The position numbers were made by a program, and so were the translations under genes. A stretch of 64,000 bases of DNA. Source: Candidatus Bathyarchaeota archaeon (GTDB lineage Archaea; Thermoproteota; Bathyarchaeia; Bathyarchaeales; Bathycorpusculaceae). The notes under the pieces are model-generated. The model had not been told where the DNA came from. It did not search any database and was given only the letters and a program-made list of their open reading frames with translations. The stretch is taken from contig CAWGYA010000007.1 of NCBI GenBank assembly GCA_963826715.1, positions 96,001 through 160,000 of the forward strand, read 5' to 3'. Shown piece after piece: positions 7,554 through 42,289 of this stretch; the stretch's first letter is position 1; every line of letters starts with the position of its first letter.

Positions 7554-7603
7554 AATGACTAAAAAATTGAACAAAATCATCGCCAATAGGGCCACTGGAA
7601 ATG

Positions 7604-7619
7604 TGGTGAGGCCGCTGGG
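7604..7619 (-). repeat. Left att core (degenerate tRNA 3'-end copy)
   Basis: tggtgaggccgctggg matches 55978..55993 at 15/16; reverse complement ends in ACCA. Confidence 0.8.
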
Positions 7620-14417: not shown

Positions 14418-15554
14418 TTATTGTGGTTGGCCCCAATTACGCTTTAAATACTCAGCCATTTCAAAGCCTTCTAAAAGCCTCTTTCTATTTCCATCCCTTG
14501 TCCAAAGGTCTCGAATTTCTCTGCCACCTATCTTATCTTTGAAAAACGTCGGTACGCTTGACTTTTGGATTTGAACAATACATACAATTTCGTCATCTAT
14601 AGGTTCAAAGCTAATTGTAATTAGTCCAGGTATGTAAGGTTGGATATTTTCGATTATGATATTTTTTAGATGGTTTTCAAATCCATCTCTGTTTCTGTTC
14701 TTTGGCTCAGTAAAAGTCTTAAAGTCATTTTTAATACCCAGGACTTTCTTACTTTCGTTCTCGACTCCAATTATCAACCTTCCTCCTTCACTGTTCAGAA
14801 AAGCGCATATTTCCTGGATTGCTGCTTTCTCCAATTTAGGATCACCTATTTCAATACCTTTTTTGGCGGCTTCATAATTATATCTCAAACTAGCTTTGAA
14901 TTCAAGGCATTGTCCTTCATCTTTTAGCAAAAAATTTTTGAGGTTTGAGTTTGCTTGCTGTGGTTGATTATTTAAAATTGGCTTAAGTATTTCCTCCATG
15001 AATTCATGTTGAGCATTAGAAAATTCAAGTGAGAGAAATTCTGGAGAATAATCTGCCAATTCTAGCTTTACAAGGTCGCTGCTCGTAAGCCTGTGTAAGA
15101 AAGAAGATGTTCCGCTTTCTCTTTCATCGGATTTGTTGATATAGAAAGGTATTAGGACATTTCTGTAATAATCTTCGTCTAGTAATTTTTTTATAAAGGC
15201 ATAAAGGTCTTCTCGATACTTTACGTTTTCTTCGCAGGAGTCTGGAAAACCATTCTTTTTGACCCATAGGCAGAAAAGCAAATGATTTATCAGATCGTCA
15301 AATTCTCCGATCTCAACACTAAAGTCCTTCTTTTCAGAAAATATTTTTATCTCGTCAACCATGGGAGGCAGCTCCCGTGATTTATAGAGCCCAAAAAATG
15401 TGCAAATTAGAACAGGGTCAATCTTTCTTTTGAATTCGGATATATTCGCTAGAGATTTCTCTTGTATCCCTTGTTCATCTGCTTCAATTGGTGGAATTCC
15501 TCTTATTATTTGTTTAAGATTTTCTGGAATCTGGATATTTCCTTTAAGCTTCAT
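14418..15554 (-). CDS. PbeD-position protein with C-terminal Schlafen/AlbA_2 domain
   Basis: EGQCLEFKAS...ICAFLNSEGGRLIIGV AlbA_2 motifs; fourth gene of the pbe-like operon, overlapping pbeC. Confidence 0.7.
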   Translation of the reverse strand: MKLKGNIQIPENLKQIIRGIPPIEADEQGIQEKSLANISEFKRKIDPVLICTFFGLYKSRELPPMVDEIKIFSEKKDFSVEIGEFDDLINHLLFCLWVKKNGFPDSCEENVKYREDLYAFIKKLLDEDYYRNVLIPFYINKSDERESGTSSFLHRLTSSDLVKLELADYSPEFLSLEFSNAQHEFMEEILKPILNNQPQQANSNLKNFLLKDEGQCLEFKASLRYNYEAAKKGIEIGDPKLEKAAIQEICAFLNSEGGRLIIGVENESKKVLGIKNDFKTFTEPKNRNRDGFENHLKNIIIENIQPYIPGLITISFEPIDDEIVCIVQIQKSSVPTFFKDKIGGREIRDLWTRDGNRKRLLEGFEMAEYLKRNWGQPQ

Positions 15555-17433
15555 TGAGTACCGCCTCTTCGTTTACTATTTGCGTTGGATTAGATGATAT
15601 AAAAGGCCCAAAATCAGCGATTTCAGTAGGCAAGCAAAGGAGTATAATTTGTTGATGATTTGCAACTAAGTGTCTTGCTAGTTTTTCTCTGTGACTACCA
15701 ACGTTTCCTGATGGTGTATCGACGATTATTGGGTCTATTAGCGTTAAAGCTTCGGCAAAACAATAGGATAGAATGAGACGACCTGAATAGCCACCTCTTT
15801 CACGCCCATAGTGACCATCTTCACCTAATACAAGTCCTTCTTCGACGGAGAGCCTTGCAGAAAACTTTGCTCCCAAAATTGATGAAACCCCTTCTGAAAT
15901 GACTCCACTGATTATATCAATAGTTTTAGATTTTATTGTTTCACCGGCAGCCTCGACTTTGCTTATGGATTCATCAATTCTATCAATGATAACTTTATTT
16001 TCCTTTAACGTTGAGTTTTTGCTTTGCAACTCTGCAACTTGCTGTTTCAGATCTGATATCCAAGAATTACGTTCATTTAGTTTGCTTAGCAAATTGGCAT
16101 TGTTTGTAATAATCAAGGCAATGTCCTTTTGTATTAGTTCTCTTTCAGTGAAAAGTTGGTTATCCTCTGTGGTGAGTTTTATATTATTTATTTGGTTTTG
16201 GATTCTCTTGCATTCATCAATCAGGTTCTTGATTTCCTTGTATTCTTTCTCGGTATCGAGCACATTGGTTCTCGGATCAAGTGTTTTTTGTAAAAATGTA
16301 TGCACATCTGGATCGGCAATTACAGATTCTAATGCCAATATGTGTTGTCTCGAGAATTCATCCAATAATCTTCCACAGATTTCGCATTTTCCAGATGATA
16401 GACAATTTGAGATTAAATTCTTTCTAAAAGGTTCAGGTAGATTTCCTTTTTCTCGTACTTGAGTCTTAAGCTGATTAATTAATTCAATATCGGCACTATA
16501 CCATTGTGAAGCAAAGGCATAGATAGCGGAGCGTTTACGTGCAATTTCAGCAGTTTTGGTTTTCAAGTCGTCGTCAAATCGTAGTTTTTGAACAATTTCG
16601 TCTGCCTTAGCCTGAGTTATCTTGTTTTCAAGCTCAATAAAACGTTCCTGTTGGCTCTTTAGTGCTAACGAATTGGCAGCCATGTCAACCTTAATTGAAT
16701 TCGTTTCTTTCTCAAGCTGACGCAAATCTTCAATCGCAGTTCTTAGACGCCCGATTAATATTTCTAGTGCCTTATCGGATACTTTTGCATTAGCTTCTTC
16801 CAGAAGTCTATTTTTTAATCCGTTAAGCTTTTCTTTATATTCCTCAATTCGGGGGTGAGTTGCCCTTTGGTTTACAAGGAATAATAAGTCACCTACCTTT
16901 TCAGAATTTGAAGAAAGCTGCATTAATTCACGTGCTTTTTCTCCATCGAAACAGAAAAAGTCTGCACATTCTTTGAACCGCAATTCATCTTTCAGAAAAT
17001 CGAAAACTGCGTCCCCTGTTAACACATTTTTCCCTTGGTCTATCTCTAAGGTATCGTAAACCTCCCTGATTATATCGGAGTTTGGTTTATGCTCTAGATC
17101 AGAAATTCCATCAATAGATCGTGTAAATTGGTAAAGATGCTCTTTCCCTTTTTCGTCAAATGCGGAAAATCGGATTAGTATCTCGCAATGTTGAGGGCCA
17201 TTTTTGGATTCGTCAAGAACATAAGCGTGAGTAAACCATGTGTGACTAAAATTATCGACACATTGACTTTGGGGATATTTAAAGCACCACCTCATTAGTT
17301 CGATGGTAGTCGTTTTCCCTGTATTACCGTCCATAACAAAAATAGTGTGCTGACCTCGCGGATTCATTTTTAGAGTAAAGTATCTCCCACGATAGCCAGA
17401 TACTTTTATTAGCAAAAAATGAATGTTCCTCAT
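15544..17433 (-). CDS. pbeC: SMC/Rad50-like ATPase, PbeC-like
   Basis: DGNTGKTT Walker A, FCFDGE, coiled coil with CEIC hook, IIVDTP Walker B; position in operon. Confidence 0.7.
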   Translation of the reverse strand: MRNIHFLLIKVSGYRGRYFTLKMNPRGQHTIFVMDGNTGKTTTIELMRWCFKYPQSQCVDNFSHTWFTHAYVLDESKNGPQHCEILIRFSAFDEKGKEHLYQFTRSIDGISDLEHKPNSDIIREVYDTLEIDQGKNVLTGDAVFDFLKDELRFKECADFFCFDGEKARELMQLSSNSEKVGDLLFLVNQRATHPRIEEYKEKLNGLKNRLLEEANAKVSDKALEILIGRLRTAIEDLRQLEKETNSIKVDMAANSLALKSQQERFIELENKITQAKADEIVQKLRFDDDLKTKTAEIARKRSAIYAFASQWYSADIELINQLKTQVREKGNLPEPFRKNLISNCLSSGKCEICGRLLDEFSRQHILALESVIADPDVHTFLQKTLDPRTNVLDTEKEYKEIKNLIDECKRIQNQINNIKLTTEDNQLFTERELIQKDIALIITNNANLLSKLNERNSWISDLKQQVAELQSKNSTLKENKVIIDRIDESISKVEAAGETIKSKTIDIISGVISEGVSSILGAKFSARLSVEEGLVLGEDGHYGRERGGYSGRLILSYCFAEALTLIDPIIVDTPSGNVGSHREKLARHLVANHQQIILLCLPTEIADFGPFISSNPTQIVNEEAVLNEA

Positions 17434-17624
17434 TTTTTATTCCCCTTTAGCAAACGTTTGATTTCCTCTAATGATATAGAATCAATTTTGTTTTGACGAA
17501 CTAATTTTAGAAGAATGTCATCACCAGCTTCAGCAAGAAGTTTGTCAAATTCAGCATTCATTACTTCTTCAATCCTGCTTTGAATAGCAATTTGTTTTTT
17601 ATCATTATCTACTCTTTTGGTCAC
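17430..17624 (-). CDS. pbeB: Small protein, PbeB-like
   Basis: 64 aa, overlapping both neighbours, between helicase and ATPase. Confidence 0.55.
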   Translation of the reverse strand: MTKRVDNDKKQIAIQSRIEEVMNAEFDKLLAEAGDDILLKLVRQNKIDSISLEEIKRLLKGNKK

Positions 17625-19386
17625 TCAAATCACCTGATATTTGATCAATAGATAATAGTGTTTCATAGCGTTCTCTTTCTAAAAGTAAGGGCTCGCCATT
17701 TGTTTCGCAAAAAACTACGTCTATTATTTCAGCTATTGTGTGAGGGCTTTTTTGATCAAAACGTAACGCACGACCGATTTTTTGTATCCAGTCTCTTTCA
17801 GATTTATCCGAGCCATGAAGGATAACTTTATCAACCTTTGGCAGATCGAACCCCTCTGAGAGCATTTTTTCTGAAATTAAGCAATAACCTACGTTCTTTT
17901 TAAATTGATTGAAGGCATAGGTTTTGTGATCTTCACTTTTTGAGGAATCGTAAACATATGTTGACGCTTCGGGGTTCCATCCGGGTTGCTTAGTTATAAA
18001 ATCCCTCAGATGCTCCGCAATCTCGTTTGTTTGCACAAAAATAATTGAAGCTTTATCTGAAAAACCATCGATATGAGAAGTAATATAATTTTGCAGAACT
18101 CTAACGCCACCCGGTAAGCTTCTTAGCCATCTAGCACGCTTAATAGCTGCTGTCGGTTCATTAGCTCCTCCCAAGGTAGATTTACCGATTTGAATAGCTA
18201 CATTTTTGCTAAGGCTTTTGAATTCATCCATTTCTGCGAGAGTCAAATTATACTTTAAAGGGATGTATCTTAGCGGTTTTAATACTGCAGTGGAATTTAG
18301 CCTATTCCAATAGGAGTAAAAACGCTGCAACGAAATTTCGAAACGATTGTTATTTCCATCCATGAAATTAACGAAGTTTTTTACTTCATCTTCCCTGAAT
18401 GAATCGATGGTCGCTGAAAGACCAAGTCTATACGTTTGGTTTCCAAAAGATTGAATTAAACTACTAAATTCACTTAAATTATCTATATGACCATAGGAAT
18501 TATGGCACTCATCTAAAATTAGTAATAAGGAGGGCTTTAAAATTTTTGCTCGCTTATAATACTCGCGATATTGATCAAAAAATCTACTATATAATGTCAC
18601 TAAAACTCGATGGCTTGGATCTGCGAAGTAAGATCCCAAGTTGTTTAAATCCGTACCCCATTCTAAATTTGGTATGTTCGCTTGGTCTAAAAGTCTTCTC
18701 CATTGATTTAAGAGCGTAATTGTCGGAACTATCACTATAGAAGTCATATTCGAATCTTTACCAAAAAGGTATTGTAGGTATGTAAAAGCAATCTTAGTCT
18801 TGCCTGTACCGGGCGGGATGTTTACGATCGAACTGGTTTTATCTTCTAACCAAGCTAAAACCTCAAGTTGGTGTTTCCACAGAGAAGAGAGTAATTTAGG
18901 ATCAAATTTCGAATATGCGGTCGTCGTTATTGGTGACTTTTTAATAGGCAGATCGGTATTTGGGATCAAGCTAAGATCGGCATAAATTTGAGGAACATTA
19001 TCCCAAATTGTTTTGCAATTGGAAGTTAAATAAAAGAGTGACTCGAAATTCAAGTTCGAATATTCAGAAAGATTGGGAGAACCAACCGCTAAAAATTTTA
19101 TTTCCCCTTCTTTTTTAAACAAGAATAATTTAGCATGAATTAATGTTAGATTTTCTGGAATAGTAAAAAATGCAAGTTTCTTTAGTTTCATGAGATTAAC
19201 TAATTCTTCTGAGTGTTCTGTTGAATAGGTAATTTTTTCAGCATTTGACCAAATAGCAATTCTTTTCAGCGAAGGGTATTCTTTAAAAAGCCTTAAAACA
19301 AGATCGAGACTGACATTATACGCCATGCATTCAAGCTCGTCGCACTTTTCGATGTCCAAGCCTTTGGATAGCATTCGTTGAAGCAC
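17605..19386 (-). CDS. pbeA: PLD-nuclease + SF2 helicase, PbeA-like
   Basis: IHAKLF...GSPNLS; PPGTGKT, DECH, LSAT, EGFDLP, QKIGRALR; downstream of the dnd genes. Confidence 0.75.
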   Translation of the reverse strand: MLQRMLSKGLDIEKCDELECMAYNVSLDLVLRLFKEYPSLKRIAIWSNAEKITYSTEHSEELVNLMKLKKLAFFTIPENLTLIHAKLFLFKKEGEIKFLAVGSPNLSEYSNLNFESLFYLTSNCKTIWDNVPQIYADLSLIPNTDLPIKKSPITTTAYSKFDPKLLSSLWKHQLEVLAWLEDKTSSIVNIPPGTGKTKIAFTYLQYLFGKDSNMTSIVIVPTITLLNQWRRLLDQANIPNLEWGTDLNNLGSYFADPSHRVLVTLYSRFFDQYREYYKRAKILKPSLLLILDECHNSYGHIDNLSEFSSLIQSFGNQTYRLGLSATIDSFREDEVKNFVNFMDGNNNRFEISLQRFYSYWNRLNSTAVLKPLRYIPLKYNLTLAEMDEFKSLSKNVAIQIGKSTLGGANEPTAAIKRARWLRSLPGGVRVLQNYITSHIDGFSDKASIIFVQTNEIAEHLRDFITKQPGWNPEASTYVYDSSKSEDHKTYAFNQFKKNVGYCLISEKMLSEGFDLPKVDKVILHGSDKSERDWIQKIGRALRFDQKSPHTIAEIIDVVFCETNGEPLLLERERYETLLSIDQISGDLSDQKSR

Positions 19387-19542
19387 ATTAAGCCCAAGAT
19401 CATGTTCTAACTCTATCCTTCAATGCCCACCCGTAAGTAATTATATATCACAGTTTAGACTCAATCTCAACTGTGAATATATGGATCAATTGAGTTAACG
19501 CCGAATAGGTACATTAATTTTGCGTATATTTTTCAATTCAGG

Positions 19543-20712
19543 CTAGATTTTAAGCGAGGAATTTAACATATTCAGTTTCTGAACATTTTGAATAATTAAT
19601 TTCGAAGCAAATTCTATCTCTTCCTGTGTGTTATATCTCCCTAGCCCTAATCTGATAGTTGTATACGCCCTTTCTTCTCCAAATCCTAAAGCAAGGATAA
19701 CATGTGAAGGCTTAACCCTAAGAGTTGTACAGGCAGATCCCGTAGAAATTGCCAGTTTATTATTCACTGAATTAATTAATGCCTTATTTTCAACGCCGCT
19801 AAATGAGATGTTGATATTATGAGCTAGCCGCTGAGTTGGATGTCCATTTAGCTTGACAAGGTTGCATTCAGTTTCAAAGTTCTCTATTAGAAATTTCGAC
19901 CATTTACAATATTGTAAATTTTCCATATCCATTAGTTCAACTGCTCTTTTTAATGCTGACGCCAACCCTACAATTCCTGGGACATTAAGTGTTCCAGAAC
20001 GTATCCCTTTCTCATGTCCGCCCCCAAATATAATTGGCAGAGGTTTGGCTGCCCAATTGCTGTTTCGTACATACAATGCACCAATACCTTTAGGTCCATA
20101 AATTTTATGTCCAGAAATGGAGGCTAGGTCTATGTTGTTAGCGTTTACATCAAACACTATGTGTCCTACCGCTTGTGAAGCATCTGTATGAAAGGGTATA
20201 CCGTGTTTACGCGCGATAAAACCAATCTCTTTTAAAGGTGCTATTGTGCCGATTTCATTATTCGCGGTCATAACACTAATTAGGGCAGTTCTTTTAGTGA
20301 TAGCTTGTTCGAGTGCTGGTAGATCAACAATACCGTGGTTATCAACTGGAATATATGTTACTTTTTTACCTATACTTTCTAAATATCTGCATGTATCAAG
20401 AATAGATTTGTGCTCTGTGACGCAAGTTATTAGATGGTTTTTCTCCGGATCCTTTTGAGATATGCCTTGCAATACAATATTATTTGATTCCGTTGCTCCA
20501 CTTGTAAAAATTATGTTCTCTGGTTTAGCATTTATGCATTGAGCAATTTGTTTTCTTGCTTTTTGGACGGCCTCGAATGCGTCAATTCCATATTGATGGT
20601 CGATACTTGAAGCATTACCAAATTTTTCAGTAAAATAGGGTAACATTTCTTCAAGAACTCTGGGATCAACGGGTGTAGTTGCGTGGGAATCTAGATAAAT
20701 TGGGAAGTTCAA
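19543..20712 (-). CDS. dndA: Cysteine desulfurase (DndA/IscS)
   Basis: YLDSHATTP, FTSGATESNN, SGHKIYGPKG, STGSAC; coupled to dndE. Confidence 0.9.
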   Translation of the reverse strand: MNFPIYLDSHATTPVDPRVLEEMLPYFTEKFGNASSIDHQYGIDAFEAVQKARKQIAQCINAKPENIIFTSGATESNNIVLQGISQKDPEKNHLITCVTEHKSILDTCRYLESIGKKVTYIPVDNHGIVDLPALEQAITKRTALISVMTANNEIGTIAPLKEIGFIARKHGIPFHTDASQAVGHIVFDVNANNIDLASISGHKIYGPKGIGALYVRNSNWAAKPLPIIFGGGHEKGIRSGTLNVPGIVGLASALKRAVELMDMENLQYCKWSKFLIENFETECNLVKLNGHPTQRLAHNINISFSGVENKALINSVNNKLAISTGSACTTLRVKPSHVILALGFGEERAYTTIRLGLGRYNTQEEIEFASKLIIQNVQKLNMLNSSLKI

Positions 20713-21083
20713 GCGGTTTTCTCCTTAGGAAGTAAATCCCGAAAGTCTTGGATAGTCTTTACTCGGTCGAACAATACATTTGCGCCCCGATTCATATGTG
20801 CTCTAAATTGTGGAAAGAAATCCTGATCTAGATCTAAATTGTCCTTTAACATACGCTCTTTTAGCAAAGCAACAAAAAGCTTGTCCCATTCACCAATTAA
20901 GGTATACCGGTTTATTTCTTGCCCATCTTCGTCATAGTTAGCCGGGTTAGGGACAACAGGATCGCTAAGTGATAGACAGAATCCGATCCTACAAAGTATA
21001 TTGGGTGTTAAACCCGTTCGCCCTTTTAGCATAGATAACCGAGCGGTTGCTGATTTGCTTAATCTGAGTCTATAGAAACTCAC
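20709..21083 (-). CDS. dndE: DNA sulfur modification protein DndE
   Basis: LKGRTGLTPNILCRIGFCLSL...HMNRG. Confidence 0.9.
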   Translation of the reverse strand: MSFYRLRLSKSATARLSMLKGRTGLTPNILCRIGFCLSLSDPVVPNPANYDEDGQEINRYTLIGEWDKLFVALLKERMLKDNLDLDQDFFPQFRAHMNRGANVLFDRVKTIQDFRDLLPKEKTA

Positions 21084-23107
21084 TGTTGTGCCTCCGTATT
21101 TTTCCAGAAGTATCCTTCTCTAACGGTAGTTTTGCCCATTGGGGGATTGTATTCTAAGCTATACGCTTTTGAAATGTTAGGATACAGCAAATTGAAATAT
21201 GGTTGGTCTACTTCGGTATTAGTGGAAAAGATTATTATTTGATGGGAGGCATTCGCGAGAAAATTCTTTAGGACATTTCTCCTATGATCTATGTCAAGTC
21301 TTCCTAATGGCGTATCTATCATAAATGGTAGCTGTCTGCCAGAAGTTTTGGCAAGGGCCCAAATCATTGCCATTGCATAAATCTGCCGTTCTCCTGCGGA
21401 GAGCTCGCTTTTTGGAAGGGGATCGCCATGAGGTGTGAATAGCGTGATGTTAAAGTTTGTTATTGAAACAGTTGCATTACCAATCAAGTTGTCTTTTCCA
21501 ATTAGAAGGTTAAAACATTCAAGAAAGTTATCTTTAAACGCAGTTATTTTTTCGTTTCTTGTTTCCTGCAAATAATCTTCTATTACTTTTTGCGCTTTTA
21601 TCCCAAGTTGGATTTTTCTATTATGTTTGTCAAATTGGGTTTTTTCTTCCAGAAGCTTTTCTTGCTCATCTATGCTGATTTTTAGCTGTTTAGCGTTTGC
21701 TTCAATTACTTTTTCTATGTTTGCTTGGTTTTGTAATTCTCTTCCAAGTTCTTCATGCAGTTCGCCCAGCTTTATGAAATATGGTTTTAGTAGTTCATCG
21801 GAGGGGGCATTGGAAATATATCCATTGATTGTTTTTGCTTCAGATTCCAAGAATATTAACGAAGAGGTAAGTTCCTCTAACTTAAACGGCGCCCTACTTA
21901 ATGCGGTTTCAATCCATCGCAGGAGGTCACGTCTTTCAAGTGATGATATAGCGTGGATACTCTCTTTTGGACTACCATTCATTTGTTGTAGCCTATTTCT
22001 TAGAGTTTTAATTGCCTCACTCGCGACAAGTTCTTTCTCATCTTTTGATAATTTTAGGGCATCAAGAAATAGAGCATTGCTTATATCCTTCGTTAGGTCA
22101 TTTGCTGCCAAATTGAGGTAAGCAAGGGCTGCCTGCCTTTGTTGGACTTTTTCTTCATTCTTAAGTCGATTCTTAAGGGTAAGGCATAATTGAGGGGTAA
22201 ATGTAAAAGGAAGTAATTCGGCACATAAAGTGCGGATTTGTTCTTTTATCGTCTCAATTTTCCCCTCAAGTTCTTTTGCCTTTTGTTTATACTCTTCTCT
22301 TTGAGATGCAAAGCCTCCGCCAGCGGTAGAAATTGCTTGCTCTTGGCTTTCAATTTCAATGTTAATTCGAGAAATCTTGTTTTGGAGGTTGGCTTTGGTT
22401 TGTAGAAAAGAGTCTATTTCTGTTTCGATTATTTTTCTTTGTTTCTGAACCTCGAAAAGTTTACGTTCAAATTTTTCAGGGTCTCCCGCTGATTCTTTGG
22501 CTATGAATGTTTTAACGTCATATCTAAGGTCTTCAATCAGATCTAAACCTAATAGTGAGTTAATTGAGCCAATAATATGTTGATTTTCACCTTGACCACG
22601 AGATAGACTCTGGATTTTTTCACCATCAAATAAGAATAGCTTAGAAAGACCTGGCGGAATGAGCTCTATTAGGAAGTTCTGCCATTGTTCTTCATCTGCT
22701 TCTTTTAGAGCTTCATTGTTTTGAATAACAGCAAGTGTTTCTATAAGCAGGGTACCATTGTAGTTCCAAGTTCTTGTTACTTTGTAATTGTCGATCACGC
22801 CCAGCTTAGGATAGTCAAAGGTTAATGTTATTGAAGTCGTTGTCGCTTTGGTTCCATCAGGATTTCTATGGATACGAGCAACAATATGCTTATTGTATAA
22901 TGATTTTGGCATTTTTTGGCCTTTAAATGCATCACCATATAGACAAATTTTGAAGGCTTCAAGCAGAGTTGTTTTTCCACTACCATTTTTTCCGCCAAAA
23001 ATGATGATGGGTTGGCATCCATCGGATGATTTTTTGGGCATAAGATCAAAGGTTTGTTCTTCAGAAAATACGCCGAAATTTGCTATTTGAAGACTTTTGA
23101 ACCTTAT
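21080..23107 (-). CDS. dndD: DNA sulfur modification ATPase DndD (5' end extended to an ATA codon at 23107)
   Basis: (I)RFKSLQIANFGVF N-terminus; GKNGSGKTT, FLFDGEKI, LSAGERQ, IDTPLGRLD. Confidence 0.88.
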   Translation of the reverse strand: MRFKSLQIANFGVFSEEQTFDLMPKKSSDGCQPIIIFGGKNGSGKTTLLEAFKICLYGDAFKGQKMPKSLYNKHIVARIHRNPDGTKATTTSITLTFDYPKLGVIDNYKVTRTWNYNGTLLIETLAVIQNNEALKEADEEQWQNFLIELIPPGLSKLFLFDGEKIQSLSRGQGENQHIIGSINSLLGLDLIEDLRYDVKTFIAKESAGDPEKFERKLFEVQKQRKIIETEIDSFLQTKANLQNKISRINIEIESQEQAISTAGGGFASQREEYKQKAKELEGKIETIKEQIRTLCAELLPFTFTPQLCLTLKNRLKNEEKVQQRQAALAYLNLAANDLTKDISNALFLDALKLSKDEKELVASEAIKTLRNRLQQMNGSPKESIHAISSLERRDLLRWIETALSRAPFKLEELTSSLIFLESEAKTINGYISNAPSDELLKPYFIKLGELHEELGRELQNQANIEKVIEANAKQLKISIDEQEKLLEEKTQFDKHNRKIQLGIKAQKVIEDYLQETRNEKITAFKDNFLECFNLLIGKDNLIGNATVSITNFNITLFTPHGDPLPKSELSAGERQIYAMAMIWALAKTSGRQLPFMIDTPLGRLDIDHRRNVLKNFLANASHQIIIFSTNTEVDQPYFNLLYPNISKAYSLEYNPPMGKTTVREGYFWKNTEAQQ

Positions 23108-24538
23108 GCTGATTCCTCCAATCTCAAGCTTTCAGATCTCTTCTTTTCAAGAAGTACCTCTTCTTCGCTTCGCCATTCTGCCGAAAATACTTGGTTTATT
23201 TTCTTGTGAATTGATGCTCTTCGGGTCATTCCTTTTGATTGAATAGCTGCATCCAGTAGTTTCATAACCAGTCTTAGCGGAACGTCATTTTTTATACATA
23301 TTTCCTGTAACCTAATCTTATCTTTTAATGAGAACCCAATGTCGTCATGTATCCACTCAAGTTCTTTACCGGTTATTTCTTGGTATATTTTTGGCACTGA
23401 GTCTTCCCAATCGCTCTCTTTGGAGAGCCATAAGCGTCTGATTTCGAAAAGTTCCTTATGTGAGACTAAACATACGCTATGTTTCGAGTTATCTATGCAG
23501 ATTTGAGCCTTGAGTAAGGTGGCTAAAAGCTGTTTGCGGAAGTCAAGGGTATAGGGACCTCTTGTAATAGTCCCTGAACCATCAGATTTAAACCACACTC
23601 TACCATCCTTTCGTTTATAATCTCTATAAATATGCTTATTCCAAGGATCTTGTGTTTTAACTAGAAGATCATGTATGTCTAGCAGCGGTTGCAACCATGT
23701 TTCTCCTGCATCAATGAGAGCACTTAATGATTTGTCCTCGTTGACTAAGGTACAGACCCAGCATCCGAATCGGCTATTGCCGCAGGTAGGTGTTGTTTCA
23801 TCGACGACTAAGGGGCACTCTCCTTGCGCAGTTTTGTATAATGCGACGAGGTCTCGATTTTCGTTCCCCCATGGTGATGGAACTTGGAGGAGATATGACC
23901 AAACATCATTTACGCTCCATTCCTTGATTGGTGTATAGACGAATGCGCCTGAGAAGGTTGAATGCCTTGACAAGAGACTATTGGGTATCTCATAGAGACT
24001 AATTACTTGAGCACGTGTCGCACTCTCTTGGCGACGCACACCTAAAATTAATACTACTTCGCCATGTTTTGAAAGATGTTCGGTTATGAATCTATTTGAG
24101 GGGTTTATTTTTAGACGTTCTGTGCACCATCTAAATCTCTGTGATGGAGCTGGGTATCCTTTTCCAAGTAAATTAACCCAAAAGCTATCAGCTATAACCG
24201 GTTTCAATCTATGAGTTATTATGGGTAAATTAAGCTCTTTTGCTTTAGTAGCTACTCTATTGAGACTATTATTAACTATATCTACCATGACAGGTGTTTC
24301 AACTAAAGTGTCTGTAGCAATTACATGGATTGGTTTGCTTCGTTTTTCAGGTGGCAATTCAGAAATGGCATAAAAGATTAATTGGAGAACAAGTTGTGGA
24401 GTCTTTACCTCCACTATAACCTAACACCCAAGGCCGCTGATCTGAGTGATAGACTTGTTGGATTTCTGTATAGATATCCCGCAGACTACGTTTATCAAAT
24501 ATAGACGGTTCTACTGTTTGATCACTATTTTCAGCCAT
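23104..24538 (-). pseudogene. dndC: dndC with a frameshift just after the PP-loop (or an assembly error)
   Basis: ATG at 24538 reads ...RPWVLGYSGGKDST, then an extra A near 24394; remainder LVLQL...GYPAP...RWCT...SRFGCWVCT in another frame. Confidence 0.85.
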
Positions 24539-24540
24539 GT

Positions 24541-25692
24541 TTAGTTACCTCGACTTTCCTCTGCGAAATCTTGCTCTAAGGTTTGTTCAGCTTCGCTTAA
24601 GCTTAAACATAAGATCTTCTTGATTGCTATAGAGACAAGCGCCGTATTTTTTGTAGACGCAGTAATAGTACCCGAATTAATAATGCGTCCTGCCCATAAA
24701 CCGTTGGATCTAGACCAATCGACTTTTTCTAAGAGGCTCAACCGCTCTCGCCAATCATGAGGATGCTCATCAAGTAAGGTTTTTCCAGAAATACCTAGAG
24801 CCTGAAGCATAATACCATGAACGTCAACATAGTTTTTCCTGAGTTCACTTGCTGGAGCCTTCCCCGCCTTGACAAGCAACCAGTGCTCCATGTGTTTTGA
24901 AACCTCTGTCCAATATTGGATGGCTTTAGTTTCGTCTTTTTCAGCAATGCGACCAAAATTTTGCCCTATACCTAATAAGTACCTAGTGGCTTGGTAAAGA
25001 CTACTGAGTGTAAACAGTTTTAGGGACCTGTTAGATATTGAGCTTTTTTCAAATTCTATTTTGTCAACGAATACTGGGACTAAATCAGCGATCTTTTTGG
25101 TCAAACGAGATAGAGATTCCCTATGATTGTAAAGAATTGAAAGAGACATTGTGGGTCGCAGAGCGTGTTTATTTAGATCAGAGAACATTTGCTGACTCCT
25201 TTTTAAGCCACCGTCAACAAAGAAAACAACAGATATATGCTCTGAACCTAATTGGGGCATTTGCTTTAACGCTTCCTCAATCGCGGCTTTTCTATGTTGA
25301 CCATCATTTATCAAAAATCTTGCAGATTGAGGAATTATCAAGTGACCTACCTTGCTAGCAGCACCACTTTTACTAAAGGGAACAAATTCAACGCGACAGT
25401 CGACTGAAGCCGTAATAGAAGAGAAGACATAGTTTTTTGGGTCCTCGAGAATATAGCGGCTGATGGCCGGAATCCTTGAGCGATTCAATTGTCGTTGCGC
25501 CCTATTAGTCGAAGGTAACTCTTTTTCATCAAACAAAAACAATTTAGGAATGAAACTGAGCTGGACCATTACTGAATAGTATTCTCGACCAGCTTGTATT
25601 CCCCTTAGGGCCATAAAAGTGTAATTATTAGATTCACAAGATTCAACGCTACCCAATAGATCATTTATTTGCCCCTCAGTCATTCGCTTCAC
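24541..25692 (-). CDS. dndB: DNA sulfur modification regulator DndB
   Basis: RGIQAGREYY, RAQRQLN, INDGQHR, QQMFSDLN. Confidence 0.92.
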   Translation of the reverse strand: MKRMTEGQINDLLGSVESCESNNYTFMALRGIQAGREYYSVMVQLSFIPKLFLFDEKELPSTNRAQRQLNRSRIPAISRYILEDPKNYVFSSITASVDCRVEFVPFSKSGAASKVGHLIIPQSARFLINDGQHRKAAIEEALKQMPQLGSEHISVVFFVDGGLKRSQQMFSDLNKHALRPTMSLSILYNHRESLSRLTKKIADLVPVFVDKIEFEKSSISNRSLKLFTLSSLYQATRYLLGIGQNFGRIAEKDETKAIQYWTEVSKHMEHWLLVKAGKAPASELRKNYVDVHGIMLQALGISGKTLLDEHPHDWRERLSLLEKVDWSRSNGLWAGRIINSGTITASTKNTALVSIAIKKILCLSLSEAEQTLEQDFAEESRGN

Positions 25693-25868: not shown

Positions 25869-26588
25869 TTGAACAATCTTTTTGAGCGTTTTGTGCATTT
25901 CCAGACTGCCGTAGACAGGCTTGAATTGACATGTGAGAAAAATAAAAGAGTTTATGCAGAAAGTCACAAGTTAAATATAATTAACTTCAACCGAATTATT
26001 GAAGTTAGAGACTTAAAAATAGTGCAAAATAACATGTTTGACACAGCGAAGTCGTCGGCAGCGGAATCCCCGCTCAATAAAGAGTTAACTTACGCTAAGA
26101 AGACAATAAAAGCCCTGGAATTGATGGACCCTCAACTATCAGACAATGCATGCATTGTTCACGGAAAAAAACATGCCTGGATACGGATTAAGACCTGCCT
26201 AAAAAAGACGAATTTCTATCTATTTATGGAAAATGGTGCAATTTGCGTTGACTTATATATTGGCGGCAGGGGCAAAAAAGAAGCTAACCAATTAGTTTTC
26301 GACCGATTCTTTGCAAGAAAAACTGAGATTGAAAGTTTGTTTGATAAACCGATTTCTTGGGTAAGAAAACATCCGAAGTCTTCGCAGGCATCCAGAATCA
26401 TTATCCGAAACACCGATTTTCTGGATAACGATTTTTCAAACTCCAAACAAGCATTAACCTGGGCAGTAGACAACCTCATAAAGCTATACCAAGCTCTCTC
26501 ACCACAGTTATGTGAGATTCTTGAAAAGTATAACCAGGTGAAAAAGCAATCAAATCCTCTCCAAAGAAATAAAATAAAAGAGACCTAA
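25869..26588 (+). CDS. DUF4268-like protein
   Basis: FDRFFARKTEIESLFDKPISW...ASRI motif. Confidence 0.6.
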   Translation: MNNLFERFVHFQTAVDRLELTCEKNKRVYAESHKLNIINFNRIIEVRDLKIVQNNMFDTAKSSAAESPLNKELTYAKKTIKALELMDPQLSDNACIVHGKKHAWIRIKTCLKKTNFYLFMENGAICVDLYIGGRGKKEANQLVFDRFFARKTEIESLFDKPISWVRKHPKSSQASRIIIRNTDFLDNDFSNSKQALTWAVDNLIKLYQALSPQLCEILEKYNQVKKQSNPLQRNKIKET

Positions 26589-26743: not shown

Positions 26744-28192
26744 TTAGGTTGTTTGTCTACACCAAAACAGGTAAACTTTTGTTTGAGATAGCATTGCAAG
26801 AATCTTAATCAATCTGCCAATTTTCAAGTTATCCGCAGTTTGCATGGATGCCAGATATTCGGATGTTTTTCCATATGGGTTGTGTCGGCTAGGCGCCACT
26901 TCTTTTTTAAAGCGTGGATGTTTGCTTGCCATGAAGGCTGTTTTGAGTTCTCTTATTTGTTGCTCAGTTAAGTTTTCGAGTTTTGATTGTACATAGCGCT
27001 GGCTGCCAATAAGCTGTAAGTTAAACCCAAGGTGTTGCAGTGTATTAGTAATTCCCTTAAATCCTTCAACAGATTGCTGTTCCATAACCTTTCGCATTCC
27101 TGCCTTCTCTGCAAAAGGCGAATATTTTGCCATTACAGCAATCAACTCAACGTATGGGGTGCCAGCTTGGGGTAGTGTATCACGGATTATTTTCTCTCCA
27201 AGACCTATTGTCCGGTATTTGGGGTGGATTACAATACGGTTTATGGTACTGAGTTTCTGGTTTATTTCTGCCATTGTCATCCTTGGAAGCACAAGACGTC
27301 TTCCATAGCAGGCAGGAGGGGGATAAGTATAGACTATTACACCACAGAGCTCATCACCCCTGGCCATTCTGAAGATTTTTCGGGGAACAGAGACTCCGTG
27401 TCCTCGATAGTGGAAAGCGCTTAGTTTTTTCCAGTCTTCTTTTGTTCCCTGCTCTATTTTCATTTCCTTGGTTAAGCTGCATTCAGGCGCTGGGTTGTTT
27501 GGGTAATAGTTAATTCTGATTTCTTCGCCAAACCTTTTGTTGACAAGTACGCTGGGTTTTAGGTCATCTTGTAAGTCGCTATGGGTTGTGGCTGCTATAA
27601 CGGCTTTACCCTGCTGGCGGGCAAGCTTTTGTAAGTTGTAAGCAATTATTTTTGCGGTGTCTCGATCTAGGCAGGCAGCGAACTCATCCATCAACCACCA
27701 GTGCCGCTGCTTACCAGATTCGATGAGTTTTGCGATTCTGTAACGGTACTTTTGGCCGTCGCTGAGTTGACTGTAGGTACGTAGGAAGAGGAAAGCGTCG
27801 TTTAAGCCCACTTTGCTAAGAAGCTCCAATCCTTGCTCAACTGTGGCACCTACGGTTTCAATTAACGGTTTCTCTGGATCTACTTCAACATCTGATAGAT
27901 CGATGGCTTCTTCGCCAAGGTCAGCCCTTATTGCTCGTAGCAAGACGCTTTTGCCGCTGCCGCTGTCCCCTGTGATGTAGACGATGTCTTGTGGTCCAAT
28001 CTTTAGTTCCGCATCCAACACCTTGAACTTCTGCGTCTCATCGATTCCTAACCCGAAGGCTTCAGCTACAACAAGACTTCTTGGCGTGGGCTTGGTATGT
28101 GTTTCATAGCTGATGTTAAACGTGAACTTGCCTTCAGCCCTATCGTAGACTCGTCGGAATTGCGTTATGCGTAAGTCTCTTTGTCTTCTCAT
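26744..28192 (-). CDS. ABC-type ATPase fused to GNAT (Mom-like) acetyltransferase
   Basis: GDSGSGKS, LSDGQKYR, MDEF; FHY, INRIVIHPKYRTIGLG; no TM partner; follows terL. Confidence 0.82.
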   Translation of the reverse strand: MRRQRDLRITQFRRVYDRAEGKFTFNISYETHTKPTPRSLVVAEAFGLGIDETQKFKVLDAELKIGPQDIVYITGDSGSGKSVLLRAIRADLGEEAIDLSDVEVDPEKPLIETVGATVEQGLELLSKVGLNDAFLFLRTYSQLSDGQKYRYRIAKLIESGKQRHWWLMDEFAACLDRDTAKIIAYNLQKLARQQGKAVIAATTHSDLQDDLKPSVLVNKRFGEEIRINYYPNNPAPECSLTKEMKIEQGTKEDWKKLSAFHYRGHGVSVPRKIFRMARGDELCGVIVYTYPPPACYGRRLVLPRMTMAEINQKLSTINRIVIHPKYRTIGLGEKIIRDTLPQAGTPYVELIAVMAKYSPFAEKAGMRKVMEQQSVEGFKGITNTLQHLGFNLQLIGSQRYVQSKLENLTEQQIRELKTAFMASKHPRFKKEVAPSRHNPYGKTSEYLASMQTADNLKIGRLIKILAMLSQTKVYLFWCRQTT

Positions 28193-28199
28193 TCCATCG

Positions 28200-29648
28200 T
28201 TACCTCGGGATTACTGCTAAGAACGGTTCAGGCTCCATTTGGACTGTGGCAAACACGGCTAGCGCTATGCTCCAAAAAACGTCGTCATGCGTTCCGTTTG
28301 GGTGCGAGTATCCTATAGCGCCATCTTTGCGCAAGTCATAACGCTCAACGTTTAGTTCTGTGCATATGTCGCCTCGGTATGGGCGTTCCCAATTCAGCAG
28401 TGGATAGACGAACTGTTTGTTCATCATACGCTGCTTAAGCAGGCTTGCCATCTCGCTTTTTCGGGGCACACTAAAGTTTACTCCTTCAGCGTTTTCTATT
28501 CCTGCATTTTGCATATCGGCAATAATGGACGGTCCTTCCCGGGTGAAGTCAATTCGTATCTTTTGGAATCCACCCCACCGATCCTGCAACGCCTTCAAAT
28601 AACCAAGAACCTGAGCATACAATGTCGGCTGCTGAAAAATCTTCAAATGCCTAAGAAACAGCCTATCATTTAGTCGCTCAATAACCGAGAGGACGCAGTA
28701 ATCTCTTGTTTGCGCTAAGTCAAGCCCCGCGAAGAAATCGCCCTCAAATGTCGCCTCAGGATTGAACTCTTGCAGGTCCTCGCCACAGTTTTTGGTTGTA
28801 CCAATGCAGCTGACAATAAGTGACTGGGCAAGCCAGGTGTCTTCATCCTCCGCCCACTCAGCCTCCATTTCCCGACGCCAACGCTGCGGATCATCCCCAA
28901 ACTGCCGCTTAATCTTCTCCACAATCGCCAACTTAAGCGGACCATCAGGCTCCAACGCATCACTCCAACGCACATGCGAGCGGGCAAAATCCTGGTAGTC
29001 TTTGTGGTTACACATCTTCCAAAACAACGAATCAGAATTCCAAGGCGTAGACGTCGCAATCAACTTACCATTAGTAGTACCCAAAGTAAACAAAATAGCA
29101 TCATAGAGTTCCTCATCGTTAGGCACGAAATTAGCTTCTTCAATCCAGATCACTTTGAAGGTGGGACCTCTGATGGTGTCGGGATTGTTTGGGAAAGCTT
29201 CAATCATGCTCCCGTTTGGCAAACTAATCCTTGTCTTCTGCACATGCAAGCCTGGCTGCTGGGGAAGCTTTCGACAAAAACCACCCATACGCCTTATGTT
29301 TAATTTAGTTTGACGCCAGCTAGGCCCCACAATCGCAATGTAACTGTCGGGATGCTCCCAAGCATACTTGAGAAGCAAAGCAGAAACCGAAAAACTCTTC
29401 CCCGTCTGACGCGACCAACGCACAGCAGTAAACTGGTTACTCTCAAACATGTCCGCAAGCTCCAGCTGATAGCGATAGGGTGCAAAACCGAAAACCTGCT
29501 TACAAAACCCACTAAAGTCATTTTGTAACGCTTCTACTTGAGTCTGCTTTTTAGCCTCATGAGCCGTTGCCAACTGCTGGACACGTTCCATTTTGGCTTT
29601 AGCTTGGTTTATCCTCAGTGTCCGAGGGTTTTTTCTCCAAAGAACCAT
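28200..29648 (-). CDS. terL: Terminase large subunit
   Basis: WSRQTGKS, IWIEEA, STP, AGLDLA, HDDVFWSIALA. Confidence 0.93.
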   Translation of the reverse strand: MVLWRKNPRTLRINQAKAKMERVQQLATAHEAKKQTQVEALQNDFSGFCKQVFGFAPYRYQLELADMFESNQFTAVRWSRQTGKSFSVSALLLKYAWEHPDSYIAIVGPSWRQTKLNIRRMGGFCRKLPQQPGLHVQKTRISLPNGSMIEAFPNNPDTIRGPTFKVIWIEEANFVPNDEELYDAILFTLGTTNGKLIATSTPWNSDSLFWKMCNHKDYQDFARSHVRWSDALEPDGPLKLAIVEKIKRQFGDDPQRWRREMEAEWAEDEDTWLAQSLIVSCIGTTKNCGEDLQEFNPEATFEGDFFAGLDLAQTRDYCVLSVIERLNDRLFLRHLKIFQQPTLYAQVLGYLKALQDRWGGFQKIRIDFTREGPSIIADMQNAGIENAEGVNFSVPRKSEMASLLKQRMMNKQFVYPLLNWERPYRGDICTELNVERYDLRKDGAIGYSHPNGTHDDVFWSIALAVFATVQMEPEPFLAVIPR

Positions 29649-30066
29649 AATCAGCCTCCAATTTGTCTAAACGCTCTTCAATTCCCCGATAATCCAAGTA
29701 CTCAGCAAAAGCATCCTTGTAGGTCTTAGCTAAAGTGGCTACAACCTGTAAACGCTGAACCTCATCCTTGCTTAGCCCAGCTTCAGCACTCTTCAATAGA
29801 GCAGCCGCCAAAATCTGCAGCGTCTCCTCAACGTTAGGCATGTTAACAGGGAGAACAAGTTTAGAAGAAGAAAAAATCGTCTTTTTCCCAGAAACAGCTA
29901 TTTTTTCTTCTTTCACTATCTTAAGTTTAAGGTCAAACAGCTTCTGCGTGATAGCATCATGCGTTTTAACCATGATTTTGCAGATAGATTCAACGCTTTC
30001 GCCTTCCTCTACTAGCTGTCGAAGTTGACGCTCTTCATCTATATCCCATGGTCTACCCTTCGTCAT
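29599..30066 (-). CDS. Probable terminase small subunit (HTH)
   Basis: WDIDEERQLRQL HTH; overlaps terL. Confidence 0.55.
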   Translation of the reverse strand: MTKGRPWDIDEERQLRQLVEEGESVESICKIMVKTHDAITQKLFDLKLKIVKEEKIAVSGKKTIFSSSKLVLPVNMPNVEETLQILAAALLKSAEAGLSKDEVQRLQVVATLAKTYKDAFAEYLDYRGIEERLDKLEADYGSLEKKPSDTEDKPS

Positions 30067-30305
30067 GTTTTCTGCCCCACAAACAACCCAACAACAGTCC
30101 CACTCAAGCCGGTAATTGACGCGAAAATCTCAGCATTCCACGTATGAAAGAAAACCATATGAGCCAATTCAAGAGCGGACATAAAAGTCGTCATAGCAAT
30201 AGCAAATTTAACACCCAAAACCAACTTTTCGTTTGGTTCCTCAACTATCAGGCGCCCCCGCTGCAGTCGTCTTCTTGTCAGAGCACGTTTAATTGGGTCT
30301 GCCAT
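30063..30305 (-). CDS. 2-TM membrane protein (holin-like)
   Basis: Two TM helices, late operon. Confidence 0.45.
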   Translation of the reverse strand: MADPIKRALTRRRLQRGRLIVEEPNEKLVLGVKFAIAMTTFMSALELAHMVFFHTWNAEIFASITGLSGTVVGLFVGQKT

Positions 30306-30735
30306 CGATACTTAGCCTCTTTTGAAACAGTGTATTGCAGAAAGTTCTTGGACGATTAAACGCCCTATGTCCACCGAGCATGAAACTATTAACCAGCTTG
30401 CCCGCAGCCTCTTTGGGTATGTGTTCTTTAACTAACACTGAGACATCAACTGCCCAGCTAAGCGGAATAGCAGTGTAATCCAAATCAAAAAGACCATCAG
30501 CATAGCGGAAGCTGTTTTGAGCCAGTACTATGTGCTTAATTTTGTCGCCGATTAGACCAACGTATATGCCCCAGCTTTGTACTGGAACATCTATTGCCAT
30601 TCCTGAACCGCTGCTTTTACCAACAGAGGCATCACACCAGCTGCAACAGATTAAATCCCCCGGGCATAAACTCTCAAGTGCACTTCGCAAACTGCTCTTC
30701 ATTTCTCTACCTCGCCACCTTATACCTGTTAACAT
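30289..30735 (-). CDS. Hypothetical viral protein (possible Sm/SH3-like barrel)
   Basis: GDLICCSWCDAS...SWGIYVG...HIVLA. Confidence 0.55.
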   Translation of the reverse strand: MLTGIRWRGREMKSSLRSALESLCPGDLICCSWCDASVGKSSGSGMAIDVPVQSWGIYVGLIGDKIKHIVLAQNSFRYADGLFDLDYTAIPLSWAVDVSVLVKEHIPKEAAGKLVNSFMLGGHRAFNRPRTFCNTLFQKRLSIDGRPN

Positions 30736-34552: not shown

Positions 34553-34588
34553 CTACTCTTTTCCTCCATTTTTTTAGTTACTATCATT

Positions 34589-35170
34589 TTATTCGATTCC
34601 TCTGCGGTAAAATGAGGCCTCAGATGAACCACTCCCAGAGCGGGAAACAACTGCGGCTTCACCTGATCTTTGAATACTACGAGTGTGAGTAGGCGTTTCA
34701 GAGGTGGCGCTATTGAAGTTCTGCACACTATCAGTTGCGTTGTTCATGCTAGTAGCAAAGTATGCCATGGCTGCTGCAGCCGCCACAATAACCGCAATCC
34801 CCACACCCGTTAATGCCAGGAATGTTCCGTAGCTAATGTTTAGGGCATTTTGTGCTGCAGTGGCCACCCAGCAAGCCGCAGAATACACCTTCTGAGCAAC
34901 AGCTAAACCGGTGCTCGTTCGTAGGAACATACCCATAACTGAGACAACCATCATCGAGGAGTTGAAAACCTTCATCTCAGAATCATTCAAAATACCAAAT
35001 TGGTTAGCAACATAGCCGATAGCGGTTCCAGCAGCACCTAAACCAGCTAGTGCAGTTCCTAAGCTCCTAACTCGTGTTGCTAGGGCTTCAGCGTCTGTTT
35101 GTATCCTGGCGAATTCATTACTAGCTCTATTTATCGCTCGAATGGTTAGGGCGATTTCTCGAAAACTCAA
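34589..35170 (-). CDS. Very short tape measure protein
   Basis: IALTIRAINRAS N-terminus; Ala/Gly-rich amphipathic; AAQNALN...LTGVGIAVIVAA. Confidence 0.7.
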   Translation of the reverse strand: MSFREIALTIRAINRASNEFARIQTDAEALATRVRSLGTALAGLGAAGTAIGYVANQFGILNDSEMKVFNSSMMVVSVMGMFLRTSTGLAVAQKVYSAACWVATAAQNALNISYGTFLALTGVGIAVIVAAAAAMAYFATSMNNATDSVQNFNSATSETPTHTRSIQRSGEAAVVSRSGSGSSEASFYRRGIE

Positions 35171-35535
35171 AGCCCCGCCTCCACCCTGGCCTGCTCAATG
35201 GCTGCGATGACTACGGATTCGAGTTGAGGCAGATACTCTTGGATGGCAGGATAAAGGTAAGGATGCGCCTGCATGTACTTGGTGCCTAGTTCTACGAACA
35301 GAGCATATACGGCCTCTGCCCCAACATTAACTACCCATTCCTGGATCTTTGCGTATATGGTGCTTCGCAGATAGCCGCTACGGACAGGGACAATTCGTTG
35401 CGCCTCTGCTTTAACATCGGCAGCCCAGCTAGCCAAGAAACTGTGGACCTCACGCTGCATGCCTAAATCAAACCTTTGCATAGCTGCCTTGAACTCTTCT
35501 ACGCCCTCGATATCGCAGGCTATTTCTATCGCCGT
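35167..35535 (-). CDS. HK97-gp10-like tail completion protein (frame open upstream to ACG at 35535)
   Basis: VPVRSGYLRSTI...YALFVELGT...PYLYPA. Confidence 0.8.
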   Translation of the reverse strand, partial: TAIEIACDIEGVEEFKAAMQRFDLGMQREVHSFLASWAADVKAEAQRIVPVRSGYLRSTIYAKIQEWVVNVGAEAVYALFVELGTKYMQAHPYLYPAIQEYLPQLESVVIAAIEQARVEAGL

Positions 35536-36055: not shown

Positions 36056-36070
36056 TTTTTGGTCTCCTTG

Positions 36071-36934: not shown

Positions 36935-36950
36935 TCTTTGTCACCTATTA

Positions 36951-39355: not shown

Positions 39356-39357
39356 GG

Positions 39358-39741: not shown

Positions 39742-39828
39742 ACGCTTTTGATACGTTCGTCAATTTCTTTTGCCTCTTGTTGGTTTCTTGCACAGCCCCT
39801 CAAGGGAGCCATGTCAAGCCAAAAATGG

Positions 39829-42285: not shown

Positions 42286-42289
42286 CCGA

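Follow-up and report, generated by a model that had tools for sequence, protein, structure and literature searches.

A Dnd phosphorothioation cassette with a Pbe-type module and a variant fourth subunit in a tailed provirus of Bathyarchaeia

Phosphorothioate (PT)-dependent blocking of virus has been shown for the DndCDEA-PbeABCD system of Haloterrigena jeotgali; the report of that work (PMC6459918) gives lengths of 66 amino acids (aa) for PbeB and 152 aa for PbeD, records DndCD in two Bathyarchaeota genomes and lists PT as measured in Methanoregula boonei 6A8. In PMC10853773, PbeA is described as an HKD endoDNase-SF2 helicase, PbeB as a small protein, PbeC as a CxC Zn-hook ABC ATPase and PbeD as a DndE cognate, and tandem DndD/CxC systems are counted in 41 archaeal taxa. 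According to PMC11705971, tailed proviruses of Woesearchaeales (WATPV) carry DISARM together with a Dnd system (PbeA, PbeC and DndA-E), and the Bathyarchaeia tailed proviruses BATPV1 and BATPV2 carry pPIWI or Drm genes, with pPIWI in BATPV1. In PMC12429752 the sole such gene described is an orphan DndC-like one from a prophage, and neither PMC13573593 nor PMC10848311 mentions Dnd or Pbe. Here we describe a nine-gene cassette in a tailed provirus within a 64,000-nucleotide stretch of contig CAWGYA010000007.1 (C7) from a Candidatus Bathyarchaeota archaeon, referred to below as the window. The cassette belongs to the published kind of provirus-borne Dnd-Pbe system, its fourth subunit being a new variant, and it is probably an antivirus cassette of the Dnd plus CxC/Pbe type lodged in a defence-cargo slot.

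The cassette (window 14418-25692) consists of nine open reading frames (ORFs) on the minus strand, of 383, 436, 653, 124, 389, 593, 64, 629 and 378 aa. They are arranged as dndB-C-D-E-A, followed by an HKD-nuclease/SF2-helicase, the 64-aa protein, an ABC ATPase with a putative Zn hook and the 378-aa protein. In transcription order the spacings are 126, 62, -4, -4, 156, -20, -4 and -11 nt, so that five of the eight junctions overlap by 4 to 20 nt and the remaining three are gaps of 62 to 156 nt. An earlier, sequence-only reading of this DNA had described nine co-oriented, mostly overlapping genes; that observation is confirmed, with the corrections given below, and its interpretation is partly supported. 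The layout is that of the H. jeotgali A29 DndCDEA-PbeABCD system (Xiong et al.), where the dnd genes are likewise followed by an HKD/SF2-helicase, a ~65-aa protein, a coiled-coil ABC ATPase with a Cys hook and a fourth small subunit, in the same gene order and with the same translationally coupled overlaps. Unlike that system, the one in the window includes dndB, is provirus-borne, has a frameshifted dndC and scores weakly against Pbe models.

Three libraries of hidden Markov models, from PADLOC, Pfam and NCBIfam/TIGR, agreed on the first five genes (Table 1). DndB, DndD and DndE each exceeded the curated NCBIfam cut-offs. DndA scored 417.5 bits against the NCBIfam DndA model, under its cut-off of 480; the lysine that binds pyridoxal phosphate (SGHK) and the catalytic cysteine loop (noted as STGSAC and as SGSAC) were both found in this internal gene, in agreement with the earlier proposal that the cassette travels with its own DndA. 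The host has a cysteine desulfurase paralogue, 40% identical to the cassette DndA, on another contig (C8). The DndC family occurs once in the host genome, and the cassette is the sole PT system there. Models for the DndFGH-type proteins dnd_assoc_2 and dnd_assoc_3 matched nothing in this genome, a result that shows little because the control also matched nothing.

The sequence-only reading had called the four downstream genes pbeABCD-like. This stood with respect to PbeA- and PbeC-type matches and motifs, but the fourth gene encodes a different, larger protein than PbeD; likewise, PADLOC named DndA-E, PbeA and PbeC but returned no PbeB or PbeD match. In the 593-aa PbeA-like protein, the PbeA model matches cover the helicase half. 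Residues H84, K86 and GSPN102-105 are invariant in all five orthologues, the RE_NgoFVII PLD domain is matched at 8.1e-4, under its cut-off, and homologues bear PF09565/PF13091. M. boonei 6A8 encodes a homologue of this helicase that is 46% identical. The 64-aa protein had no family match in PADLOC, Pfam and NCBIfam searches, PbeB models included, and is conserved at 53-95% identity in the five of five loci that span the interval. Eight of the 11 PADLOC matches of the PbeC-like ATPase are PbeC models and none is DndD; LmuB and GajA are also among them. The ATPase has a long helical middle, and C344, C350 and C353 (C-x5-C-x2-C), located mid-length, are invariant in six of six aligned sequences and form a putative Zn hook. 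With DndD it has only a C-terminal DTP..G..HR motif in common (E = 3e-4). The four-gene module adjoins dnd genes in all six loci retrieved with the fourth gene from the genome_contigs collection, four of them from Bathyarchaeia/Bathyarchaeota, one from Anaerolineales and one from Methanothrix.

The fourth gene is not a recognisable PbeD. Its N-terminal domain (N-domain) belongs to a rare family, with 38 clusters at E ≤ 1e-3 among 1.84 billion representatives. A Pfam scan of 30 family representatives found 15 stand-alone proteins (183-216 aa), 9 with AlbA_2, 5 with HEPN (some of these matches being weak) and 1 long protein with no C-terminal match; the Anaerolineales and Methanothrix loci have the stand-alone form. 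No sequence link was found between the N-domain and any PDB chain. The AlphaFold2 model of the N-domain alone was confident (pLDDT 86.4, pTM 0.84), and its top two fold matches among 48,161 chains were two DndE entries, with weak Z scores of 4.8 and 4.5; Foldseek with the N-domain alone returned nothing at E ≤ 0.001. The model thus weakly suggests a DndE-like fold. Unlike the H. jeotgali PbeD/dnd_assoc_4 protein, the window protein has an N-domain of ~190 aa with no detectable sequence homology to it and is fused to AlbA_2.

The C-terminal domain has a clear Schlafen/AlbA_2 fold, with Foldseek matches that include the SAMD9 tRNase domain and SLFN13/14 and a profile match to SLFN14 at 3e-6. Like the AlbA_2 nuclease domains of SLFN11, 12, 13 and 14 and the SAMD9 tRNase, it has the E-x4-E-F-K motif, which is retained in all AlbA_2 members of the alignment; unlike them, it is prokaryotic, single-lobed and fused to a possibly DndE-like domain. 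At the site taken to be the third catalytic acid of Schlafens, the window protein has Asn and several relatives have Asp. The Schlafen/AlbA_2 domain here and HEPN in relatives suggest, speculatively, an added RNA-directed effector or sensor.

The provirus that carries the cassette lies in a 2.64-Mb genome of 8 contigs and ~41% GC (G000). The host is archaeal, as had been proposed: its small-subunit rRNA scored 1477.8 bits with SSU_rRNA_archaea, the best model of its clan, and close homologues of the cassette proteins are named by NCBI as Candidatus Bathyarchaeia/Bathyarchaeota metagenome-assembled genomes. Protein comparisons along the contig revealed three related tailed proviruses in tandem at tRNA-Pro(GGG), C7:64325-193238, and the whole window lies inside this array. 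The intact tRNA-Pro(GGG) is at C7 c193160-193238. Each provirus of the array terminates at an incomplete copy of this tRNA's 3' end, the copies being located at C7:64325-64347 and at window positions 7602-7619 and 55980-56002. The middle provirus (window 7620-55979, 48.4 kb) contains the cassette; it is inverted relative to its neighbours and has a different integrase (7666-9102), the 3' end of which faces the left attachment (att) site and which is 53% identical to a copy on C2.

The repeat flanking the middle provirus is 16 nt long with one mismatch. Repeat scans with long exact seeds missed it because the mismatch splits the repeat, and tRNA and Rfam scans of the window had no match; the att sites were found by searching the contig with the 3' flank of the integrase gene 6258-7553. 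Window 7301-7619 (319 nt) is 95% identical to C7:192857-193175, beside the intact tRNA. Comparison of the host flanks in relatives was uninformative because both window ends are themselves proviral. The integrase, att repeats, large terminase, HK97-type capsid and tail tube, with the cassette internal to them, bear out the view of the sequence-only reading that a temperate tailed virus carries the cassette between att sites. Its placement of the cassette next to the packaging genes also holds, as 2.5 kb separates the start of dndB (25692) from the large terminase. The virion module proteins are 58-92% identical to those of proviruses in two relatives, G014 and G069. A portal protein was not identified in family scans of the provirus.

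Table 1. Coordinates of the cassette, the provirus and other features, in window positions
Feature	Position	Strand	Matches and remarks
Left att, 18-nt partial tRNA-Pro(GGG) 3' end	7602..7619	+	Also right att of neighbour provirus (integrase 6258-7553)
Tyrosine integrase of middle provirus, 478 aa	7666..9102	-	Phage_integrase 8.4e-08; phrog_1 2.3e-10
Companion gene, 155 aa	13896..14363	+	Convergent to last cassette gene
PbeD-slot protein, 378 aa: N-domain ~1-195 and Schlafen/AlbA_2 domain 213-360	14418..15554	-	
PbeC-like ABC ATPase, 629 aa, coiled coil, Walker A	15544..17433	-	PbeC best 2.2e-16
64-aa protein, PbeB position	17430..17624	-	Overlaps both neighbours
PbeA-like, 593 aa: N-terminal HKD/PLD nuclease and SF2 helicase	17605..19386	-	PbeA best 5.6e-45; ResIII; Helicase_C
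DndA cysteine desulfurase (class V), 389 aa	19543..20712	-	PADLOC DndA 1.5e-153; Aminotran_5 9.5e-82
DndE, 124 aa	20709..21083	-	PF08870 4.9e-27; TIGR03184 93 bits (cut-off 71.85); PADLOC 1.3e-48
DndD ABC ATPase, 653 aa, Walker A	21080..23041	-	TIGR03185 457.2 bits (cut-off 245.85); PADLOC 1.8e-190
dndC main ORF, 436 aa, without PP-loop	23104..24414	-	TIGR03183 500.5 bits (cut-off 290.4); PADLOC 6.5e-170
dndC 5' fragment, 59 codons including GYSGGKDS, different frame	24359..24538	-	
DndB, 383 aa, DGQHR motif	24541..25692	-	PF14072 3.5e-123; TIGR03233 445.9 bits (cut-off 328); PADLOC 1.7e-144
DUF4268 protein	25869..26588	+	Resembles PADLOC candidate PDC-S11 (2.5e-16)
Viral ABC-type ATPase	26744..28192	-	phrog_11143
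Large terminase	28200..29648	-	Terminase_6N 9.6e-16; phrog_2 1.2e-36
Virion module: GH5 tail fibre, tail completion, tail tube, HK97-type capsid, cement/scaffold	29599..43553	-	
Second low-GC cargo island	43895..55784	mostly -	DndB-like, weak GIY-YIG, TPR, JAB and others
Right att, 23 nt identical to tRNA-Pro 3' end	55980..56002	+	Also left att of next provirus

A second provirus with the cassette was found in another species of the same genus (G069). It is bounded by a 24-bp direct repeat (G069:C3, 109547-109570 and 146912-146935) and has the same nine genes and a relative of the 13896 companion gene in the same slot, with the cassette between that gene and the ATPase of the ATPase-terminase pair. 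Between the two proviruses, the cassette proteins share 55-74% aa identity, and the ATPase and terminase 76-78%. DndC was found in 3 of 61 genus genomes, as opposed to 48 of 61 for the terminase family. A further copy, in G072, has its pbeA in two pieces, of 256 and 351 aa (G072:C17:37033-38798, the same as L014:7033-8798). Relative to that copy, the pbe genes of the window (pbeC and the small gene) are 93-95% identical, and the dnd genes 62-76%. Because these identities differ, we conclude that the pbe and dnd modules recombine. The cassette also moves as a unit between proviruses and an island that lacks virion genes. Its GC content is 37.6% versus 47.4% for the virus core, and the corresponding values in G069 are 38.8 and 48.4.

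To see what occupies the slot in related viruses, we turned to IMG/VR, where 157 of 162 pattern-matched stretches encode a terminase relative; the comparisons used the best 80 of these 157. The viral ATPase was matched in 70 of the 80, after the terminase. The slot was judged to be spanned in the 15 relatives that extend at least 3.9 kb past the ATPase or terminase. Six of these 15 have PADLOC-family genes in the slot (10 of 86 ORFs at E ≤ 1e-8), namely type II restriction-modification (RM) genes, pAgo/PIWI with a type III restriction endonuclease (REase), methyltransferases, a subtilase and mad8/HerA. For example, the slot holds a pAgo/PIWI gene and a type III REase in L072:12961-18237, whereas L095:13513-16292 and L086:4816-8828 have either a type II RM pair or a nicking REase accompanied by a cytosine methylase and a PD-Lambda-5_A-like gene. 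In 35 of the 80 loci the sequence stops no more than 100 bp from where the ATPase (28) or the terminase (7) was matched, a pattern that breakage of assemblies at a hypervariable slot would produce. The slot just downstream of the terminase-ATPase pair is thus a defence-cargo hotspot of this virus group. The provirus of G014, the closest relative (terminase 93% identical), was considered as an empty site for the comparison that the sequence-only reading had proposed. It is indeed related and cassette-free, but the candidate was rejected: its ATPase is cut at residue 200 and abuts a truncated 13003-like gene (G014:C1:2130439-2131256), so its slot looks like a deletion scar rather than a clean empty site.

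The locus had been called whole. All five dnd families are present, but a shift of one base near 24388 breaks the dndC reading frame, so the locus is not whole in this assembly. The PP-loop is in a different frame from the 436-aa ORF, which TIGR03183 matches only from model position 28 onward and which has no SGGKDS. In G069, G072 and L017 the orthologous gene is uninterrupted, and its open frame measures 481-485 aa in the first two. The remaining provirus genes that were compared with the G014 and G069 relatives gave full-length alignments; for this reason the assembly does not appear to be riddled with indels. Among sequencing runs, one DNA run held 5% of sampled words and no RNA run was listed as holding any; the contigs of the DNA run cover only window 7000-7556 and a few short pieces. 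We lean slightly towards a real mutation, an assembly or sequencing error being possible. Since dndC is frameshifted, PT marking, and with it Pbe-type protection, may be switched off in this host.

We infer PT writing, its regulation by DndB and a PT-dependent block of invaders from the named protein families and the haloarchaeal system. DndA would take sulfur from cysteine; DndC, DndD and DndE would write PT marks on host and proviral DNA, with DndB tuning the marking; and the Pbe-type module, made up of the nuclease/helicase, the small protein, the Zn-hook ATPase and the DndE-like subunit, would act on unmarked DNA and block superinfecting viruses. A number of results weigh against this probable reading, and they are given here with the explanations they would favour. 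It is quite possible that the cassette is decaying cargo, with a real frame shift in dndC, no PT written in this host and a Pbe-type module that is inert or drifting. The break in dndC separates the PP-loop from the remainder of the protein in an assembly that otherwise looks sound, pbeA is split in the G072 copy, and PT loss abolishes protection without harm to the cell in the haloarchaeal system (PMC6459918), so nothing would select against the mutation. However, the break comes down to one base in an 8-contig assembly of the metagenome type; the other eight cassette genes are intact and conserved; and dndC is intact in G072 as are the copies in G069 and L017. Very improbable, in our estimate, is that the four downstream genes are a separate helicase-nuclease/ABC-ATPase system sharing only gene order with PbeABCD. 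The PbeA-like protein scored just 84.8 bits with TIGR04095 (cut-off 600), the best PbeC score of the ATPase is weak, and LmuB and GajA are among its matches. PbeB and PbeD matches are lacking, TIGR04062 (dnd_assoc_4) did not match the fourth protein, Pfam DndE matched 0 of the 30 N-domain family representatives, and hhalign of the N-domain with DndE and with three dnd_assoc_4-like Thermoproteota proteins gave probabilities of 0.1-0.2. Against such a separate system, the positions, sizes and domain types match the published PbeABCD (593, 64, 629 and ~190 aa plus the fused domain), the HKD and Cys-cluster motifs are present, dnd genes accompany the module at every locus retrieved, DndE heads the structural matches of the fourth subunit, and the helicase has its homologue in M. 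boonei, an organism with measured PT.

The cassette might instead be a defence island of the cell that moves from one integration hotspot to another, landed in a provirus and serves the host or itself, perhaps without ever being packaged; we regard this as rather unlikely. Its GC is below that of the virus core in both proviruses, and its tetranucleotide distance is 0.191 to the host (0.14 +/- 0.05 for 11-kb host chunks) versus 0.382 to the core; the distance to the second cargo island (43.9-55.8 kb) is 0.138. The cassette is absent from 15 of 15 IMG/VR relatives that span the slot, none of the eight cassette ORFs of at least 100 aa was found in any of the 80 terminase relatives, and viral_contigs yielded no relatives when scanned with the PbeC-like profile or with DndC. 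The G072 copy lies beside tRNA-Pro(GGG) in a recombinase-rich island with serine recombinases, nucleases and a transposase, with no virion genes within the 60 kb examined, and the unequal identities of pbe and dnd genes point to module shuffling. Such an island is harder to reconcile with a cassette that has no recombinase of its own and is found at one and the same slot in att-bounded proviruses of two species, where bona fide viral contigs hold other defence cargo; moreover, a 48.4-kb provirus with the cassette does not appear too large to package. It is less probable still that the virus uses PT for itself, marking its own DNA against PT-reading defences elsewhere or stabilising lysogeny by an addictive, RM-like effect. 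The cassette does adjoin the packaging genes and brings a DndA despite the host paralogue, and PT-modified SNJ1 virus escapes DndCDEA-PbeABCD. The effector module, however, is unnecessary for simple self-marking, and addiction is unlikely because PT loss is non-toxic with PbeABCD present (both SNJ1 escape and non-toxicity as given in PMC6459918). We still read the cassette as cargo acquired in a defence hotspot, and as cargo that also travels on other integrative elements.

Because a Dnd-Pbe system is already published for Woesearchaeales tailed proviruses (PMC11705971), its presence in a non-halophilic archaeal provirus is not new. Both cases are head-tailed archaeal proviruses of non-halophiles with the same PADLOC names (PbeA, PbeC and DndA-E), but the Dnd-Pbe cargo is in a different host class here and the likeness is one of gene names. 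With BATPV1 of that paper, the virus group shares pPIWI through one IMG/VR relative (L072). The slot resembles prophage and provirus defence-cargo hotspots in general, being a variable slot at a fixed position with different defence systems in related viruses; it differs in its place, which in this group of archaeal tailed viruses is immediately behind the terminase-ATPase pair. Neither this slot as a defence hotspot of the group, nor the ~190-aa fourth-subunit family and its Schlafen/HEPN fusions, was found in print, though supplementary tables may bear on both; the words Schlafen and AlbA are absent from the main text of PMC10853773.

With this cassette, provirus-borne Dnd-Pbe defence now reaches the Bathyarchaeia, which are abundant and uncultured, and the fixed slot, mapped in their commonest tailed proviruses, is a practical place for finding more defence genes of archaea. 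Of greater use as a lead is the fourth subunit, combining a rare family, a hint of a DndE-like fold and Schlafen or HEPN add-ons. It offers a handle on how Pbe-type systems stop viruses, for which the published accounts give "no DNA cleavage" (PMC6459918) as opposed to "nuclease or suicide" (PMC10853773). One speculation, which we consider doubtful, is that this branch of Pbe/CxC systems has made the DndE-like DNA-reading subunit two-part. Its swappable C-terminal module (AlbA_2 or HEPN) would be an RNA- or tRNA-cutting abortive-infection arm, fired when the scanner formed by the ATPase and the DndE-like subunit meets unmarked DNA, and Bathyarchaeia tailed viruses would use such a two-armed PT system against competing viruses. 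The culturable M. boonei 6A8, with its helicase homologue and measured PT, is an experimental entry point.

Additional genes accompany the cassette. The 155-aa companion gene is convergent to the final cassette gene in each of the four Bathyarchaeia copies that reach that side (L016/G072, L017, L018 and G069), has 47-69% identity in G069, G072 and L016-L018, and has no Pfam match. On the other side, the stretch separating dndB from the viral ATPase holds extra cargo, the DUF4268 protein, which the G069 copy lacks. The second cargo island encodes a DndB-like DGQHR protein (43895-45205; PF14072 9.8e-30), a 160-aa weak GIY-YIG protein and an 8xMP membrane protein, and is mostly missing from the G014 relative except for two short conserved ORFs at 54376-54940. 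In L017:12734-14478, the pair of DndB-like and 160-aa genes directly adjoins the dnd-pbe cassette, which hints at a functional link between the two.

In the virion module, the tail-fibre-like protein (30707-34552, 1281 aa) combines a cellulase domain of glycoside hydrolase family 5 (7.5e-14) with InlB-type B-repeats, and may serve to depolymerise a glycan on the host surface. Another fragment of an integrase is located at C7:63605-64252. The neighbouring proviruses begin with a paralogue of the ATPase (59169-60253), which is split or fused to a GNAT acetyltransferase and also occurs on C2, C4, C5 and C8. A neighbouring provirus also has, upstream of two ORFs that resemble small membrane proteins, a 29-nt direct repeat whose two units (61404-61432 and 61685-61713) are 90% identical and lie 281 nt apart.

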